Below are positions 17,786 to 25,753 of a stretch of DNA of 33,723 nt, one piece after another. Position 1 is the first letter of the stretch, and every line of letters starts with the position of its first letter. Both the position numbers and the translations under genes were made by a program. This stretch comes from Promethearchaeota archaeon (lineage in GTDB: Archaea; Asgardarchaeota; Lokiarchaeia; Sigyniarchaeales; SOKP01): assembly GCA_048939445.1 (NCBI GenBank), contig JBHLPN010000006.1, forward strand, positions 1 to 33,723, in the 5' to 3' direction. The notes under the pieces were generated by a model that was given only the letters and a program-made list of their open reading frames with translations, ran no database searches and was not told the DNA's origin.

Positions 17786-18991
17786 TTATCTTATCCTTAA
17801 AATACCCTTATAAATTAATACATAATTCTTTACACCTATAATCTTAGGATTTCTCCTATAACTTAAAGGGATAGGAGCATTACATCGAGAACAAAGACCA
17901 GAGGTTCTAAGCCAATCTTTAAATTCGTCTGCGTGAGCTGGATATCTGCAATTCGGACATAAAACTATTCCTCTGCCATTATCTCTAGGATATTCTGGTA
18001 ATTTGAAACAAAAAATACATTTAAAATCTTCTAACGACAAATTTGCAGCCTTTGGCCTATACAATTTTAAATTTATGCGCTTTACGGTGCTCTGACTCCT
18101 TCTAACTGGTTTAGTTGTTCTACTCGTGCGTGTAGTACGAGAAGTCGTTTTAACTCGAGAACTTTTGGATTGAACACGCCCAGTAGGCGTTGATCTTGAT
18201 GATTGAGAAATTGTTCTTGAAGTTCGAGTTTCTGTTCTAGTTGATGGTGTTGGAGATGATCTTGATCTAGTTGTAGTACGGGTACTTTGTCTCCTAGGAG
18301 TTGTATTTCTTGTTGGTGCTGTTAATTGGTTTAATCTCCTTGTACGTCTTGTTATGTAGTCTCTAGTTAATTGAGGTAATTGCGATCTAGTTCCAAATAA
18401 TCCAGGTACAATCAATATGAGTATAGTACTGATAAGTAATATCAAAAGATTAAGATCTATTAAAAAATGTAAAGGTATTAATAAAGTCCCATAGAAATCT
18501 ACAAGTGAATAAAAACTAATCCAATAAATAATTATGAAAAAAAGAATTGAGGTACTTAAAATATAACCAAAAATACGTGCTTTAACTGACTTTGTCCCAA
18601 AATAAATTACATTATATTTTTTAAAACAATAATATAAAGAAATTGAACCATATAATATATAGGGAAATCCGAATAGAAGACTCCACAAGCTTAAATATAA
18701 ACCTGTACCTTCCAGAAGATTTTCTCCTAATAAACCGGTAAAATTACCCCAAATTGAATAAAAAATTCCCATAAAAACAGGACCAATTGTAAAAAAAGCA
18801 GTATTGTGAGGAGAATTAAATTCACGATATTGTTTAATGTTTTTTATAACTTTAAAAGAAAATATCAACCAGATTCCAATTAATATCCAACTTACAAATA
18901 CATTGAAAGAATTTATAATAGCCCCATGGATTATACCAATTACCAAAAATATTGCCAATGTAATAACGACAGATTTAATTTTAGCCTTAAT
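17786..18991 (-). CDS. multi-pass membrane protein (~6 TM) with an S/T/R-rich linker and C-terminal RING-like zinc finger; putative E3 ligase (ORF-track start 18958, probable ATT start 18991)
   Basis: About six hydrophobic segments, then a low-complexity linker, then CxxC-x16-CxxC-x4-H-xx-E-xxx-W-x6-CxxC; last gene of the Ubl-E1-E2-JAMM run. Confidence 0.72.
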   Translation of the reverse strand: MKAKIKSVVITLAIFLVIGIIHGAIINSFNVFVSWILIGIWLIFSFKVIKNIKQYREFNSPHNTAFFTIGPVFMGIFYSIWGNFTGLLGENLLEGTGLYLSLWSLLFGFPYILYGSISLYYCFKKYNVIYFGTKSVKARIFGYILSTSILFFIIIYWISFYSLVDFYGTLLIPLHFLIDLNLLILLISTILILIVPGLFGTRSQLPQLTRDYITRRTRRLNQLTAPTRNTTPRRQSTRTTTRSRSSPTPSTRTETRTSRTISQSSRSTPTGRVQSKSSRVKTTSRTTRTSRTTKPVRRSQSTVKRINLKLYRPKAANLSLEDFKCIFCFKLPEYPRDNGRGIVLCPNCRYPAHADEFKDWLRTSGLCSRCNAPIPLSYRRNPKIIGVKNYVLIYKGILRIR

Positions 18992-19016: not shown

Positions 19017-19829
19017 TTAATCTTCATCATATTCAAGGTATACTGCTTTCCCTTCTATTATAGGATTTATAAATTTTAAAATTTCCGGTAGCATTTGTAC
19101 ATCTAATGATCCTTTAATCCCATATACCAATGGATACCACGTTCTAGATTTAAAATCTGCCTTATATATTTCAAATCCAGTAGATTTACCATCAATTTGA
19201 TAAGGATCGATAACAAGGGCAACAGCTTTATCCCAAAGCTTTTGATATCTTGCTTGAGTTCCCATATCTTCATTAGACATAAAGCATCCATATGATGGGT
19301 GTGAATGATACCAACCACAAATGAATAATTTCTGTCTTTTGATATCTTTAAAGGCTTTCACATAATTTTTATAATCTTTGATTTCTGCATAAACTGCTGT
19401 GCCGTGCCCCATTGGATAAGAATCTTCAATATGTAGTATATTATTTTTATCTATTTTTCCTGCAAGAAGCCCTATGACCTCCACCCATCTTTCTCTTGGA
19501 ATCTTAGAATTAGCATATTTAAGTGCATGACTCGCTATTTTAAGAATCGCTTTTACTGAAATATAAATTTCTTTTTCTATTTCTTCTTCTTTGAAAATTT
19601 CCGCTTCTCTTTTTTCTACAATATTAGTTGTAGGTATCTTTGTAAGTTTTATAATTGGTTTAGCAGACGATTTTTTTGTAAGCATTGAAGAGATTTCTTC
19701 TGTTAATTCATCTTCTTCTAACTGAAGTTCTTCATATATTTCGTCTATTAATTCTTGCTTTATTTTTGCTTTTATCTTCCTTTTAATTACATCTTTAATT
19801 GAATTATTATTAACATCTTTATTTTCCAT
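19017..19829 (-). CDS. JAB1/MPN+ (JAMM) metalloisopeptidase, Rpn11/CSN5-like, with a charged N-terminal extension
   Basis: EVIGLL...GWYHSHPSYGCFMSNED.TQ..YQ...AVALVIDP is an intact JAMM motif. ATG 19829 follows a GGTGA that overlaps the E2 stop codon. Confidence 0.9.
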   Translation of the reverse strand: MENKDVNNNSIKDVIKRKIKAKIKQELIDEIYEELQLEEDELTEEISSMLTKKSSAKPIIKLTKIPTTNIVEKREAEIFKEEEIEKEIYISVKAILKIASHALKYANSKIPRERWVEVIGLLAGKIDKNNILHIEDSYPMGHGTAVYAEIKDYKNYVKAFKDIKRQKLFICGWYHSHPSYGCFMSNEDMGTQARYQKLWDKAVALVIDPYQIDGKSTGFEIYKADFKSRTWYPLVYGIKGSLDVQMLPEILKFINPIIEGKAVYLEYDED

Positions 19830-19836
19830 TAAGGAA

Positions 19837-20364
19837 TCACCATTTTTTATTTGCATATTTCTTAACAAGATTTTTAACTTTTTTCTCGAAAAATTTTGGA
19901 TTTTTCATCATTTCTATCGCTGCTTTTTTATTAAAAACATCAGTTGGATTTACATATTTACCACGTGTATTTAACATAGCAATTATTGCTTGAACAACAG
20001 TAACCGCTGTTTTTGAGGGACTCCATCCTCCTCGTTTACCGACTAATGAGGGATCTACTAATGCTAGACATATATTTCTCTGTCCCTTATATTCAGATGG
20101 TTTTGGCCAGAAATTTGGATGCCAAATTGGAGTATGCATTCTTACGAAAGGAGGTTGTTTGGGATATTGAGCAGGAAATCTCATTTCTAATCTAAAAAGA
20201 CCACCTGCATAAACAGTCCCTTTAGGTCCTTTAAAAGAGATTGCTAAATGATCAATACTTTTTCTTTTTGGATTAAATGGTTTTAATTGAACTATACTTC
20301 CCTCTTTAACCATCTTTTTTAATCCTGCAAAATCTCGGGAAATACGACTACTTCTTATACTCAT
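19837..20364 (-). CDS. ubiquitin-conjugating enzyme E2 (UBC fold)
   Basis: GPKGTVYAGGLF...FPAQYPKQPP...TPIWHPN...NIC (catalytic Cys)...WSP...NKKAA. Confidence 0.93.
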   Translation of the reverse strand: MSIRSSRISRDFAGLKKMVKEGSIVQLKPFNPKRKSIDHLAISFKGPKGTVYAGGLFRLEMRFPAQYPKQPPFVRMHTPIWHPNFWPKPSEYKGQRNICLALVDPSLVGKRGGWSPSKTAVTVVQAIIAMLNTRGKYVNPTDVFNKKAAIEMMKNPKFFEKKVKNLVKKYANKKW

Positions 20365-20444: not shown

Positions 20445-21704
20445 TTAAAACCTTTTCTGATTCAAATTTTGCTTTATTTTTAATGTTACAAAAATTTCTC
20501 CACCTTTAAACCCAGCAGCTGTCATAAGTTCGTAATTTCTTAAGTCATTTTCAATAGGATTCTTTTCTAAATCAACGATCTTTATATCATTGAAATCTTG
20601 TAAAGTGAGAATTGGCTCAGAATCTGGATCCATTTTATATCCATTTTTCTTTAGTATTTTAATTATATTCATGCAAGGTGATTGGGATCTCATTTTTATA
20701 GATACTCGTCGCACTTTTTTGCCGCATTGAGAACATTCTGAATTTCTATGCTTTTCAATATGATAAAATTTCATTGTAATTGCATTATAGATTACGTAAT
20801 TTCTTATAGGTTCGCCTAATCCTTTATGACCCTTTTTCCAATGAAGGATTTTTATTGTTTCATGTGATTGTAATGCTGAAATAACTGCGTTTATAGTAAT
20901 TATACCAGGATCGTGCCTATCAAGGATTTTAACAATATCATCTTCAGTATAATCAGGTAAGAAATTGTGTTTATATACTAGTTCATTAGCAATATCTTTG
21001 ATGAATTTAATATCATTAACGTTTTTTGGATTTGGATCTCTATTAAATTTTTCTTTAAATGCCATATCTCCTTTAAAAACGCAATGTATCCTTTTTCGAG
21101 GGATTCCTACCACTGTGCAAGCAGCCATCTCATCACTCTCTCCTACGGGTAACGGATTACATTCATAACAAGCATTTTTATAGGGAAATACTGTGTACAC
21201 ATGACCATGATAACCAGAAACTCCTCCGTCTACTAATGGTTTTTTAAATCTTATACACTGTGCGTTCAAGTTTAAACGTGCATTCATCGAATCAAGACCT
21301 CCAACAACAACATCAGCAGCTTGATATAATGCTGGATTCAATCGTTCTAAAGAAGTATAATATCCTTTAACAATAATATTTGGATTAATTTCCTTTAGTT
21401 TTCTGGCAGCAACAATCGCCTTTGGCTCTCCTATATTCGCTCCAGCAAAAAGAATTTGACGGTTCAAATTAGAATGTTCAATGATATCTAAATCAATAAG
21501 ATCTAAACGACCAACGCCAAGCATGGCTAAATTTTTAGCAATTTCGCAACCTAAACCTCCAACTCCAATTATTACTACTCTTGAGTTCTTTACTAATTTC
21601 TGAGACCAACCCTCCAAACGAAATTGACGGTCATACAAGTTTCTCTCTTCCACTGATAAATCTTTTGTAAAAAAATCTGAATCCTTATCCAATATTATCA
21701 CCAT
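20445..21704 (-). CDS. ubiquitin-like activating enzyme E1, Uba2/Uba3-type architecture
   Basis: YDRQ, GVGGLGCE, DLDIIEHSNLNRQ, CYEC, catalytic-Cys loop ACTVVGIPRKRIHC, PGIITINAVIS, CSQC, and an ~80-aa C-terminal extension (probable UFD). Alternative start TTG 21692. Confidence 0.92.
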   Translation of the reverse strand: MVIILDKDSDFFTKDLSVEERNLYDRQFRLEGWSQKLVKNSRVVIIGVGGLGCEIAKNLAMLGVGRLDLIDLDIIEHSNLNRQILFAGANIGEPKAIVAARKLKEINPNIIVKGYYTSLERLNPALYQAADVVVGGLDSMNARLNLNAQCIRFKKPLVDGGVSGYHGHVYTVFPYKNACYECNPLPVGESDEMAACTVVGIPRKRIHCVFKGDMAFKEKFNRDPNPKNVNDIKFIKDIANELVYKHNFLPDYTEDDIVKILDRHDPGIITINAVISALQSHETIKILHWKKGHKGLGEPIRNYVIYNAITMKFYHIEKHRNSECSQCGKKVRRVSIKMRSQSPCMNIIKILKKNGYKMDPDSEPILTLQDFNDIKIVDLEKNPIENDLRNYELMTAAGFKGGEIFVTLKIKQNLNQKRF

Positions 21705-21783: not shown

Positions 21784-22113
21784 CTACCCAGCAGTACTCG
21801 CAGGGATTAATAGAATATCGTCGCCATCTCTTATATCATAATCTCTCAAAGTACTGTTTTCATCCATCGTAACCCCTCCAGAAGAAATATGAAAATCATT
21901 AGGATCAAGTCCATATAGATTTCCTAATGTTTCTTTAATATCTCTTACATGATTGCTGTCATTTACAGTTAATTTTTCTTTCTTTTCACCAGGACCAATT
22001 GTTGACATGAAATATAAAGTCAATTTCTTTCCTGCTGAAGGAGTTTTACCTGCGGGAGTTTTAGATTTTAATGGTTCTCCACCTAATTCTTCATCAAATT
22101 CATCAAAACTCAT
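21784..22113 (-). CDS. ubiquitin-like modifier 1 (beta-grasp), C-terminus -TAG (single terminal Gly)
   Basis: VRDIKETL...GVTMDENSTLRDYDIRDGDDILLIP resembles ubiquitin (TLSDYNI); directly upstream of E1; GGAAGTGA precedes the ATG. Confidence 0.88.
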   Translation of the reverse strand: MSFDEFDEELGGEPLKSKTPAGKTPSAGKKLTLYFMSTIGPGEKKEKLTVNDSNHVRDIKETLGNLYGLDPNDFHISSGGVTMDENSTLRDYDIRDGDDILLIPASTAG

Positions 22114-23145: not shown

Positions 23146-23940
23146 ATGAGAAAAAATTCTAGAATTTTGAGTGTTATCACTCTTTACGTTATCTGTATTT
23201 TGTGTTATATGTTTTATTTCCTATTTCATATAGAAAATACTCCTCTATTTCTTGTTCTAACTATTGGGAGTGTTGCTGTTTTATCCACTAGTACAATTTA
23301 TACAGTTATACAGTCTAAAAGTAGTCTAGATAAGAAAATACAAAAAAAAAAATACATAACAAAACCAAAATCAATTCAAAAAGACACTATTAATATCCTT
23401 GAAGATTATATTGATGCTATGCCTTCAATAGAAGAATATATTGAGTCAGATGAATCCTATAAGGATATGCCAATAATTGATAAATATATTTTTTCAATAT
23501 TTAGCAAGGAAGAATTAGCTAAAATTGATCTCTTAGAATTACCAAAAATGGATAAGATATTATTTATCAGAGAAATGCTATATTACGATCCAAATGAAAG
23601 AAAGGATTTAATTGAAAATATGTTGAAAAACAAGGATAATATTAATGGTGAGATAATATATTCATCCCCTATAAGCTCAATTAAAATGGAAGACCAGATT
23701 CGAGTTTATGTAAGATCATTAGTTGAGCCTGGTGAGAAAACGAAAATAATCATTGTTGATACAACTGAATTAATTAGGATAATTAAGGAAAAAATAGCAA
23801 TATTATTTGATTATGAGTTAGAAGATTTTCTCTTATCTAGCGGAGGAATATTGTTAAAAGAGCATTCACTAATAGGAGAATATGATATCGATGATGATGA
23901 TGAAATTGCTTTAATCCCCTCAAGAAAAGAAAGAAAATAA
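23146..23940 (+). CDS. membrane-anchored protein (2 N-terminal TM) with a C-terminal ubiquitin-like domain paralogous to the free Ubls
   Basis: Two hydrophobic segments. The last ~80 aa align without gaps to Ubl1 (PGEK, IKE, DF, SSGG, YDI, LIP; 29/74 identical by hand count). Ends SRKERK with no Gly. Confidence 0.8.
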   Translation: MRKNSRILSVITLYVICILCYMFYFLFHIENTPLFLVLTIGSVAVLSTSTIYTVIQSKSSLDKKIQKKKYITKPKSIQKDTINILEDYIDAMPSIEEYIESDESYKDMPIIDKYIFSIFSKEELAKIDLLELPKMDKILFIREMLYYDPNERKDLIENMLKNKDNINGEIIYSSPISSIKMEDQIRVYVRSLVEPGEKTKIIIVDTTELIRIIKEKIAILFDYELEDFLLSSGGILLKEHSLIGEYDIDDDDEIALIPSRKERK

Positions 23941-23958: not shown

Positions 23959-24387
23959 TTAACCAGCTATACTTGCTGGAATTAGAAGTATGTCATCCCC
24001 ATCAGAAACATTAAAATCTCTTAATATACTATTTTCATCCATTGTTACACCACCAGACGATAAGTAAAAATCAGCAGGATCCAAACCAAACAAATTTGCT
24101 ACAGTTTCTTTAATCTCACCAACTAGATTGCCATCATTAATGGTTAATTTTTGTTTTTTCTCACCTGGGCCAATAGTAGACATGAAATATACTGAAATCT
24201 TTTTCCCTCCATGAATGATCTTTTTAGAAGGTGTTTTGGATTCAACTTCCTTCTTTTCTATCTCTGTAAAAGGTTCTTCGATATCTTCTTCCATGTCTTC
24301 TTCTATTTCTTCATCTAGATCTTCTAAATCTTCATCAAATTCTTGCTCATCAAATTCTTGCTCATCAAATTCATCATCAAAGCCCAT
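23959..24387 (-). CDS. ubiquitin-like modifier 2 with a long acidic N-terminal tail, C-terminus -IAG
   Basis: 61/82 identical to Ubl1 over the core by hand count; residues 1-50 are Asp/Glu-rich. Confidence 0.88.
   Translation of the reverse strand: MGFDDEFDEQEFDEQEFDEDLEDLDEEIEEDMEEDIEEPFTEIEKKEVESKTPSKKIIHGGKKISVYFMSTIGPGEKKQKLTINDGNLVGEIKETVANLFGLDPADFYLSSGGVTMDENSILRDFNVSDGDDILLIPASIAG
24332..24372. repeat. 15-bp coding tandem repeat (EFDEQ units) in the Ubl2 tail
   Basis: TCATCAAATTCTTGC twice plus a partial third copy. Confidence 0.75.
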
Positions 24388-24571: not shown

Positions 24572-25753
24572 ATGAATGACAAACCTATTCCCAAATATCA
24601 AATTCGAGAAAAGACACCAGATGAAGAACTTGATACATTTCCAGATAAAAAATTACTGAAGAAAATAAAAAAAGAAAGAATCAAGTTAGATAAAGAAAAA
24701 AATGAATGGGAAAAAACGATCAATCAAATTGAAAAATACAAAGAAAATGTTGAAGATCTCGAAAAGAAAAGAAAAGAAAAAGAACTTAAAATTAAATTTC
24801 TTCTTGAACAACGAGATAACTTAAAAAATGAGTTAGATAGAACTAAAAATCAAATAGAACAACAAAAGCAAGATTTAGCAGCTAAAGATCGTCAATTTAG
24901 AGAAAAAATCAGGAGTAAGAATGAAGAATTAGATCAAAAAAATGCTGAATTACATAGATTTCAAGAAAAATTAGATAATTTAAGAGAGGATATTGCAAAT
25001 CAAAAGAAGAATTTAGAATGGGAAAAAGAAAGAACAGAAAAACGAATAAAGGAAATTAAAACGAAGATTCCGGGTATGGAAAGAAGAGAAAATGCTTTAG
25101 AAAGAACTATTAATGAATTAGAAAAAAAGTTAATGGATTTAAGAAATGAAATTAAAGATTTAACTAAAGAAAGAGATAACTTAAATAGGGAAATTAATAA
25201 TCTAAGGAGAGAGATTATTGATGAGAAAAATCGAATTTCTGATGAAAAGCAAAAACTTAAAGAAGAAAGAGAAAAAATTCGTTATAAAAAACAAGATGTA
25301 AATCTAAAGTCTCGTGAACTTGATAAAAAAAGAGCAGATCTAAAAAAGTATAAAGATAAACTAGCAAATGATGTAAATAATTTAGAAAAAAGAAGACGAC
25401 AACAGGAAATGAGATTAAAAGACTTAGAAAGAAAAGTTCCTGCTACAGAAAATAAATATAATTCCTTAAGTCGTAAAATTCCAAATTTAGAAGAAAAATT
25501 TAAAAAAATAAATAATGAATTTAGACAATTAGAAAAAGAAAAAACAAACTTAGATAGAGAAAAAAATCTTATTAAGCGTGAAAGAGAAAAATTAGAAAAG
25601 GATAAACAAAGATTTATAAAGGAAAAAAGAGAATTTGAAAGAGAACTAAGAAAGATTAAAACTAAAACTCCCTCAATTGAAACAAAGACTCCTTCGCAAA
25701 TTAAAACAAAAACTCCTTCGCAAATTAAAACAAAAACTCCTTCAAAATATTAA
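24572..25753 (+). CDS. long coiled-coil protein with an internal ~120-aa repeat and a C-terminal KTPS repeat tail
   Basis: About 330 aa of E/K/R/L-rich heptads with very few Pro/Gly; no P-loop or globular domain visible. Confidence 0.8.
   Translation: MNDKPIPKYQIREKTPDEELDTFPDKKLLKKIKKERIKLDKEKNEWEKTINQIEKYKENVEDLEKKRKEKELKIKFLLEQRDNLKNELDRTKNQIEQQKQDLAAKDRQFREKIRSKNEELDQKNAELHRFQEKLDNLREDIANQKKNLEWEKERTEKRIKEIKTKIPGMERRENALERTINELEKKLMDLRNEIKDLTKERDNLNREINNLRREIIDEKNRISDEKQKLKEEREKIRYKKQDVNLKSRELDKKRADLKKYKDKLANDVNNLEKRRRQQEMRLKDLERKVPATENKYNSLSRKIPNLEEKFKKINNEFRQLEKEKTNLDREKNLIKREREKLEKDKQRFIKEKREFERELRKIKTKTPSIETKTPSQIKTKTPSQIKTKTPSKY
25655..25744 (+). repeat. 21-24 bp coding tandem repeat encoding (Q)I[KE]TKTPS x4
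   Basis: CAAATTAAAACAAAAACTCCTTC[G/A] at 25697-25720 and 25721-25744, with two more diverged copies upstream. Confidence 0.85.

Follow-up and report, generated by a model that had tools for sequence, protein, structure and literature searches.

The closest described counterpart of the genes reported here is the ubiquitin operon of Caldiarchaeum subterraneum, in which, according to the two reports on it (PMC5654768, PMC6043591), one gene cluster encodes a tag with the beta-grasp fold, an E1 of the ThiF type, an E2 of the UBC type, a RING-type protein and a JAMM protease similar to Rpn11. Its tag, CsUb, has a Gly-Gly end and a nine-residue propeptide, and its RING protein is small and soluble. 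Ubiquitins have also been published from Asgard archaea, and those for which we could check the sequences (Lokiarch_37670, HeimAB125_14240 and OdinLCB4_14240; Supplementary Data 1 of PMC9192718, the main text of which makes no mention of glycine) all end in Gly-Gly followed by 0-5 residues. A cascade from Helarchaeia has been reconstituted in vitro with a di-Gly pro-ubiquitin, as reported in a preprint (bioRxiv 10.1101/2023.07.25.550441). Here we describe a stretch of 33,723 nucleotides, the whole of which we refer to as the window, from an Asgard genome bin (Promethearchaeota; 3.36 Mb, 88% complete) that encodes two free ubiquitin-like (Ubl) proteins, Ubl1 and Ubl2, both of which end in Ala-Gly rather than Gly-Gly.

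The locus has the composition of the C. subterraneum operon, as the gene of Ubl1 is followed downstream, on its own strand, by genes for an E1, an E2, a JAMM protease and a membrane RING-like protein. In structure Ubl1 is matched best by CsUb, and in sequence the JAMM protease has CsRpn11 among its best matches. In contrast to CsUb, Ubl1 ends in Ala-Gly, is predicted to be made in its mature form and has a disordered acidic arm with an SKTP motif, and the RING-like protein of the window, at 390 residues, is a membrane protein. The published Asgard ubiquitins are of the same phylum, fold family and type of enzyme cascade as Ubl1; however, they have neither the N-terminal arm nor the Ile-Pro (I-P) tail, and in a phylogenetic tree ubiquitins of their type group with eukaryotic ubiquitin, apart from the Ala-Gly family. 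We found no description of the Ala-Gly family in the literature on Asgard or Lokiarchaeota ubiquitin, a search that did not extend to the supplementary figures of the Helarchaeia preprint. Based on the evidence below we consider it probable that Ubl1, and with it Ubl2, is a conjugatable modifier of the ubiquitin family that serves a dedicated Asgard pathway.

Family, fold and tail of Ubl1

The open reading frame of Ubl1 translates to a C-terminus of ...DILLIPASTAG with a TAG stop codon directly after it, and that of Ubl2 to ...DILLIPASIAG followed by a stop. Neither protein has residues beyond the Gly, a Gly-Gly or a propeptide, which is what an earlier prediction made from the sequence of the window (the original prediction, below) had read, and Ubl1 would therefore be translated already mature, with its Gly exposed. 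The two proteins are 66% identical across residues 9-109. In Ubl1 a disordered N-terminal arm of acidic/SKTP type (residues ~1-27) is followed by the beta-grasp core (residues 30-104) and the tail A-S-T-A-G.

Against the Pfam ubiquitin model (PF00240) Ubl1 scored 31.4 bits, above the curated cut-off of 25.4, with Rad60-SLD the second family, and its best matches among the sequences of the PDB were ubiquitins. Pfam searches of 25 aligned members of the Ubl1 family, at E<=1, gave a match to ubiquitin in all 25 and to Rad60-SLD in 19. In a gapless phmmer alignment residues 47-100 of Ubl1 lie on residues 14-67 of ubiquitin, so that TLRDYDI pairs with ubiquitin TLSDYNI, a resemblance that the original prediction had rightly pointed out. 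The offset of 33 in this alignment places G109 of Ubl1 on Gly76 of ubiquitin and A108 on Gly75.

The AlphaFold2 model of Ubl1 has a core (residues 30-104) with a predicted local distance difference test (pLDDT) score of 83-87 and the element order beta-beta-alpha-beta-beta-3/10-beta; the arm (residues 1-24) scores under 50. A Foldseek search with this model returned the C. subterraneum ubiquitin first (6fno_D, 6fj7), then ubiquitin variants, SUMO1, NEDD8 and ISG15, the top matches having template modelling scores of 0.77-0.91 when normalised to the target. VIA-align, run against 48,161 chains, gave Z-scores of 11.4-13.7 to ubiquitin, ISG15, SUMO and UBL chains. Both profiles and model are thus consistent with Ubl1 being a ubiquitin-family beta-grasp protein with its reactive Gly at the position of Gly76. 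It departs from the family in one respect, as the C-terminal Gly-Gly is replaced by Ala-Gly.

Conservation of the Ala-Gly end

A word-indexed homologue search with Ubl1 produced 863 proteins at E<=0.001. The tails of the 120 that were listed were inspected and Ala-Gly was present in every one (120/120); 112 of these proteins stop at Ala-Gly and eight have 2-7 extra residues. The source names of the close homologues were Promethearchaeota, Lokiarchaeota and similar. An exhaustive search of representatives clustered at 50% identity produced 326 proteins, and among the 150 listed there were 42 with the family tail motif, all of them (42/42) with Ala-Gly: 17 stop there, 23 have 1-6 more residues and two continue for 116 and 671 residues. 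The other 108 listed representatives were polyubiquitins, multi-repeat proteins, fragments, or a paralogue with a Lys/Arg (K/R) tail that is described below.

Across the phylum, 194 of 400 genomes had a Ubl match at E<=1e-5. These included 119 of the 134 genomes of the window's own family and genomes of 11 further families, while several families were without any match. Within the window's genus the Ala-Gly tag was present in 52 of 53 genomes. In one of the other families (f13) all 24 complete copies have the end IPVSTAG, four of them with 1-2 more residues, and in 25 genomes of 10 further families Ala-Gly occupies the aligned end in 40 of 41 distinct copies (23 stop there, 17 have 1-6 more residues and one ends Ala-Ala). 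Summed over these 11 other Asgard families, Ala-Gly is found in 64 of 65 copies. Far from ending mostly in Gly-Gly, the orthologues have no Gly-Gly among the ~230 family tails that were examined.

The codon for the Ala was also determined in 70 distinct DNA copies and was GCA in 38, GCT in 22, GCG in 8 and GCC in 2, with no GGN codon for Gly. That all four GCN codons are used indicates that the Ala has been kept through synonymous change. In 24 copies the Gly is followed by a sense codon, which in eight of them differs from a stop codon by one base; an origin of the short tails by loss of a stop thus fits only in part. The original prediction had argued from the presence of the tail in both paralogs that it was no error, and the wider sampling points the same way: from these sequences the Ala-Gly end is the product of neither chance nor error.

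Co-existence with Gly-Gly ubiquitin

Gly-Gly ubiquitins are found in the same phylum, both in genomes without the Ala-Gly tag and beside it. One family without the tag (f19) has a ubiquitin of 77 residues that ends TRTEGG-stop in 17 of 19 genomes, and the gene adjoins those of a small RING protein, an E2 and an E1. Another family (f31) gave no match to PF00240 in the 41 genomes searched. Five Ala-Gly-bearing genomes from five families were then checked for co-existence. Four of these have, elsewhere in the genome, a second (pro)ubiquitin that ends T-x-G-G plus 0 to 16 residues, and the neighbours of these genes include an E1 of their own of 342-354 residues (three cases), an E2 (one) and a RING protein with a JAB protein (one). 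The fifth has a form of ubiquitin that ends QAGG-Y. A Gly-Gly ubiquitin of this QAGG type is present in 21 of 25 other genomes of the window's genus; the classical TRTxGG ubiquitin, used as query, gave two weak matches from 61 genomes of the window's own family and so was not found there with this query, the family having the QAGG type instead.

The E1s of the two kinds of locus have also diverged. Within one genome the Ala-Gly-type and Gly-Gly-type E1s are 28% identical, and the former has an insert of ~65 residues relative to the latter; between the Ala-Gly-type E1s of separate families the identity is 43%, taken over their full length. In a maximum-likelihood tree of 28 core domains a branch with support of 97/92 splits the Gly-Gly rows from all Ala-Gly rows, although with 82 columns and long branches the tree is only indicative. 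On the Gly-Gly side are the Asgard Gly-Gly rows, four units of eukaryote-type polyubiquitin and one Gly-Gly paralogue of the window's genome. By the separate genes, the tree branch and the E1 identity, the Ala-Gly tag does not belong to the orthologous group of the published Asgard ubiquitins. Because the same genomes hold a separate Gly-Gly ubiquitin, and because the published Asgard ubiquitins that were checked all end in Gly-Gly, the Ala-Gly family is by its sequences a distinct modifier parallel to Gly-Gly ubiquitin. The claim of the original prediction that these proteins form a separate class of Ubl stands in this sense, as a modifier that co-exists with a Gly-Gly ubiquitin having its own E1.

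On another contig (C150; L004:1463-1720) the window's genome has a gene of the QAGG type, to which the published Loki ubiquitin also belongs. In this gene a stretch of 33 bases (1655-1687) occupies the place of a single codon in relatives, a net in-frame insert of 30 bases. The stretch contains a TAG, after which the frame resumes with VMATQAGG, and no other full-length copy among the matches from the genus has a stop. The insert may reflect faulty assembly or a disrupted gene, among other possibilities.

The same genome has several other genes with ubiquitin-family, E1-like or E2-like products. An 84-residue ubiquitin-family protein that ends VIGG-stop is encoded beside winged-helix proteins (L007:1480-1734, minus strand, contig C393), and its type is patchy in relatives, being present, in several copies, in two of the five genomes searched. 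The genome has five ThiF-family genes, nine ThiS matches and four UBC matches. A second large E1 gene with a long coiled-coil insert (L012, contig C14) has a TAA inside the matched frame, and there is an E2 ~1.6 kb from it; on contig C325 a ThiF gene adjoins an E2-like gene.

The linked enzymes and a proposed cascade

The Ubl genes and the genes linked to them are listed in Table 1. The E1 has the motif GxGGxG at residues 47-52, CxxC pairs at residues 179/182 and 324/327, and Cys196 in the sequence AACT, all of which are invariant across an alignment of 11 E1 orthologues. Cys196 is likely to be the catalytic cysteine. Among PDB sequences the E1 was most similar to UBA1 (7.6e-38), SAE2 (6e-36) and UBA3 (1.2e-35, covering residues 35-336), with weaker matches to MoeB (8.7e-32) and UBA5 (1.6e-15). 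The structural model (pLDDT 79.5) has a helical insert at residues ~201-290 and a C-terminal beta-grasp-like domain at residues 332-411, and in Foldseek the top matches were UBA3 chains, over the full length, followed by SAE2 and then UBA1 and UBA6. In E1s of the UBA5 type both the inserted Cys domain and the ubiquitin-fold domain at the C-terminus are absent. By sequence and model the E1 is accordingly UBA3/UBA2/UBA1-like and not UBA5-like, in agreement with the original prediction.

Table 1. Ubl genes of the window and genes linked to them, with predicted products
Predicted product	Coordinates	Strand	Length (residues)	Profile match
Ubl1, free ubiquitin-family modifier	21784..22113	minus	109	
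Ubl2, paralogous free modifier with longer acidic arm	23959..24387	minus	142	
E1, ThiF adenylation domain	20445..21704	minus	419	ThiF, E 2.3e-59
E2 conjugating enzyme, UBC type	19837..20364	minus	175	UQ_con, E 1.1e-24
Rpn11-like JAMM (JAB/MPN) metalloprotease	19017..19868	minus	283	JAB, E 1.2e-17
Membrane protein with Ser/Thr/Arg-rich linker and C-terminal Cys/His RING-like finger	17786..18958	minus	390	
Membrane-anchored protein with C-terminal ubiquitin-family domain	23146..23940	plus	264	PF00240, 28.1 bits

The similarity to UBA3, which is the closest protein to the E1 in fold, over the full length including the C-terminal domain, and close to it in sequence, invites comparison with NEDD8. 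The fold matches of Ubl1 include NEDD8, which likewise is a second modifier, parallel to ubiquitin. Unlike Ubl1 it ends in Gly-Gly, and UBA3 forms a heterodimer with APPBP1 (as titled in PDB entries), a partner for which no gene is evident for the E1 of the window; we make no claim that the two systems are orthologous.

The translation of the E2 contains HPN and a downstream Cys (ICLAL). In the JAMM protein there is a Glu in EVIGLLAG plus an intact HSHPSYGCFMSNED motif (HxHx7Sx2D), and its best PDB matches were Rpn11 (2.1e-16) and CsRpn11 (2.9e-16). It is presumed from these features to be the deconjugase of Ubl1. The finger of the membrane RING-like protein is similar to the small RING proteins that adjoin the Gly-Gly ubiquitin in the f19 loci, leading us to regard the protein as a candidate membrane-bound E3. 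In this finger an Asp stands in place of the second His of the small RING proteins from Gly-Gly operons.

The linkage of these genes extends beyond the window. A locus from a bin labelled Hodarchaeota (L112) has the full order Ubl, Ubl, E1, E2, JAMM and membrane RING-like protein, and at all 11 free-standing Ubl loci from 10 other families (11/11) a ThiF-family E1 frame of 356-434 residues lies directly downstream on the same strand.

We propose that Ubl1 would be translated with its reactive Gly109 exposed, that the adjacent UBA3-like E1 would adenylate Gly109 and then hold Ubl1 as a thioester on Cys196, and that the neighbouring E2 would then receive Ubl1, the membrane RING-like protein assisting in its ligation to targets. 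Removal of Ubl1 from targets would fall to the Rpn11-like JAMM, which in those relatives that have tails or tandem repeats would also release the tag by cutting after Ala-Gly. We are reasonably confident that the locus works in this canonical order, from E1 through E2 and RING-like protein to JAMM. The invariant I-P-x-S-T-A-G tail, in which Ala replaces Gly75 of ubiquitin, would serve as an identity mark, separating the pathway from Gly-Gly ubiquitin and from ThiS/MoaD-type proteins, and from the E1s of both, in the same cell.

Precursors and processing after Ala-Gly

The window has single-unit Ubl genes only and neither Ubl1 nor Ubl2 needs maturation. Some relatives are different in this respect, as predicted head-to-tail poly-Ubl precursors were identified with three units (P0121, P0271) and two units (P0122, P0272, P0273), as well as a fragment (P0139). 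Every unit of these tandem precursors ends STAG and leads directly into the acidic arm of its successor, and there is a two-residue cap at the end of the protein. The arrangement is similar to that of eukaryotic polyubiquitin genes, inasmuch as 2-3 units lie head-to-tail in one frame with a short cap. It differs from them in that the units join at Ala-Gly with an acidic arm between, and in that the units inside one precursor are not identical. Scanning genome contigs for tandem precursors returned two loci (L112, L113), of which L112 has two separate Ubl genes and not a fusion, and no relative was found in metagenome contigs scanned with P0121 and P0122. As the DNA was not recovered, the tandem forms rest on the predicted proteins P0121, P0122 and P0271-P0273 and the fragment P0139; P0272 is on a contig of 45.6 kb. 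An apparent fusion of a Ubl to an E1 (P0274) has no tail on its Ubl portion and was excluded, being probably the result of a frameshift or of read-through.

The Ala-Gly Ubl also occurs as a part of larger proteins. As a fusion it forms the C-terminal part of a HerA-like ATPase (~592 residues, DUF87/HerA_C) in at least 15 clusters, and likewise of a VWA-domain protein of 591 residues; examples of fusions are P0276-P0290, P0137, loci L066-L068, L074:88-1860 and P0266. A protein of 1395 residues has an internal Ubl unit with ~670 residues beyond it.

Since relatives have short tails or tandem units, the family requires cleavage after Ala-Gly, and a protease that cuts there must exist. The Rpn11-like JAMM of the operon is the candidate for cutting the precursors of relatives. 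The original prediction had confined this enzyme to deconjugation on the grounds that no maturation is needed, which fits Ubl1 and Ubl2 but does not hold for the family, with its tails of 1-7 residues and its tandem precursors. Mutants of the C. subterraneum tag are informative here. In a published study, CsRpn11 cut a Gly77Ala mutant, which has an Ala-Gly end, much more slowly and did not process a Gly77Val mutant (PMC6043591). The penultimate residue therefore matters to this class of protease, and by the same data the protease of a natural Ala-Gly tag should be adapted to Ala-Gly.

Significance of the Ala and alternative explanations

The co-existence of the two modifiers, the strict conservation of the tail and the CsRpn11 mutant data lead us to suspect that the Ala and the I-P tail insulate the pathway from Gly-Gly ubiquitin, a reading for which and against which the case is about evenly balanced. 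The broader statement that Asgard archaea run two insulated ubiquitin-type cascades per cell, with the Ala and the I-P tail as a code read by both E1 and protease, is one that we put forward tentatively and that is somewhat more likely to be wrong than right.

The alternative that survives best is that archaeal ubiquitin tolerates Ala-Gly as a functionally neutral variant, with E1 and JAMM requiring nothing but the terminal Gly and the Ala conferring no specificity. Both UFM1 and Atg8 work with a penultimate residue that is not Gly, which is in its favour, as is the finding that CsRpn11 still processes the Gly77Ala protein, if slowly (PMC6043591). Against it, a change from Ala to Gly requires one base, yet in 70 DNA copies there was no GGN while all four Ala codons were present, and in 12 families of the phylum, counting that of the window, the residue does not vary. 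The same genomes also encode Gly-Gly ubiquitins that have E1s to themselves, which would give the Ala a reason to be read as a discriminating feature. On balance we find neutral variation unlikely.

Several points weigh against our interpretation that Ubl1 is the modifier of a dedicated and possibly insulated pathway. The analysis shows the fold, the register of the tail, its conservation, the linkage of the genes and the co-existence with a Gly-Gly system, but each enzymatic step of the proposed cascade, like the insulating role of the Ala, is one that we infer, and no biochemistry on the Ala-Gly family was found in the literature. A terminal Gly alone may suffice for the E1, and the Ala may be held by some other constraint. 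Ubl2 scored 19.1 bits against PF00240, under the cut-off of 25.4, and for the membrane RING-like protein Pfam gave nothing at E<=0.1. Of the five tandem precursors, four come solely from short metagenome contigs, as predicted proteins. To these is added the indicative nature of the tree and, because the insert in the QAGG-type gene of the window's genome carries a stop, it is uncertain whether Gly-Gly and Ala-Gly modifiers co-exist in the window's own cell.

A second alternative, and the one that the original prediction had favored, is that these proteins are a hybrid class that unites UFM1-, SAMP/MoaD- and ubiquitin-like features and is kin to those families. The spacing G-x5-IP-x4-G on which this was based can be read in Ubl1 (G97, I103-P104, G109), the terminal Gly is single, and one of the 25 aligned family members touches the ThiS model (E 0.013). 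However, the tail of Ubl1 has the length of that of ubiquitin, so UFM1 is not needed to explain it. The Ufm1 model (PF03671) had no match on the genes of the window at E<=10 in a search of the genome, Ufm1 was absent from hmmscan results for Ubl1 and Ubl2 at E<=1, and it was not among 25 of the 28 families matched by the 25 aligned members (the remaining three were matched by a single member each). The ThiS model (PF02597) had no match in the window's contig, its nine sites in the genome, six of them above the cut-off, all being elsewhere. No UFM1, SAMP or MoaD chain was among the best 50 structural matches in Foldseek or in the wide VIA-align comparison, which by itself proves nothing. The one feature that UFM1 has in common with Ubl1 is a reactive terminal Gly after a residue other than Gly; it is set apart by the absence of a Ufm1 model match, by an E1 that matches UBA5 at 1.6e-15 as compared with 1e-35 to 1e-38 for UBA3, SAE2 and UBA1, and by the ubiquitin register of the tail. 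ThiS, MoaD and SAMP proteins work with an E1 alone, whereas the operon of the window has an E2 and a RING-like gene, components that SAMP systems do not use according to a published account (PMC11354881). Kinship with UFM1 or with SAMP/MoaD was therefore rejected, and this alternative, of which the separate class but not the hybrid ancestry is retained, is close to refuted.

Least credible of all is that Ubl1 is a sulfur carrier or non-covalent adaptor that shares only the fold and is not conjugated, for although no conjugates have been observed and one tandem relative bears the JGI source name 'molybdopterin converting factor small subunit', sulfur carriers have no need of the E2, RING-like protein and Rpn11-like protease of the operon, the genome has ThiS/MoaD-type genes of its own elsewhere, and the tandem precursors, like the strict preservation of the terminal Gly, speak for a protein that is released and activated.

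Implications for parallel modifiers and their detection

If Ubl1 is the conjugatable modifier that we propose, then among the archaea most closely related to eukaryotes a cascade of canonical appearance employs Ala-Gly throughout, beside Gly-Gly ubiquitin. Such a system would allow the reading of a modifier's tail by E1s and JAMM proteases to be studied in a natural setting, and could shed light on the origin of parallel modifiers of the kind of ubiquitin, NEDD8 and SUMO. Were the tentative reading of two cascades per cell true, both the split between ubiquitin and parallel modifiers and the poly-precursor layout of their genes would predate eukaryotes.

There is also a practical consequence for proteomics. 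The predicted tryptic remnant of Ubl1 is not Gly-Gly but a peptide of 14 residues, D96-G109, so that no conjugate of this tag in a cultured Asgard strain would be picked up by the usual proteomics of di-Gly remnants. The published Asgard work that was checked used Gly-Gly proteins only.

Other genes near Ubl1 and Ubl2

The membrane-anchored protein encoded on the opposite strand to the Ubl genes (Table 1) has a C-terminal domain that is 38% identical to Ubl1 and ends ALIPSRKERK. As it has no terminal Gly, this domain would not be conjugatable. The K/R-tailed form is also present in the cluster representatives P0199, P0218, P0231 and P0241, and it may be a docking site.

Divergent from Ubl2, on the plus strand at positions 24572-25753 of the window, is a gene for a coiled-coil protein that ends in K-T-P-S-Q-I repeats. 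These repeats echo the SKTP motif in the N-terminal arms of the Ubl proteins, and coiled-coil genes are found at the equivalent position in two other loci (L073 and L076).

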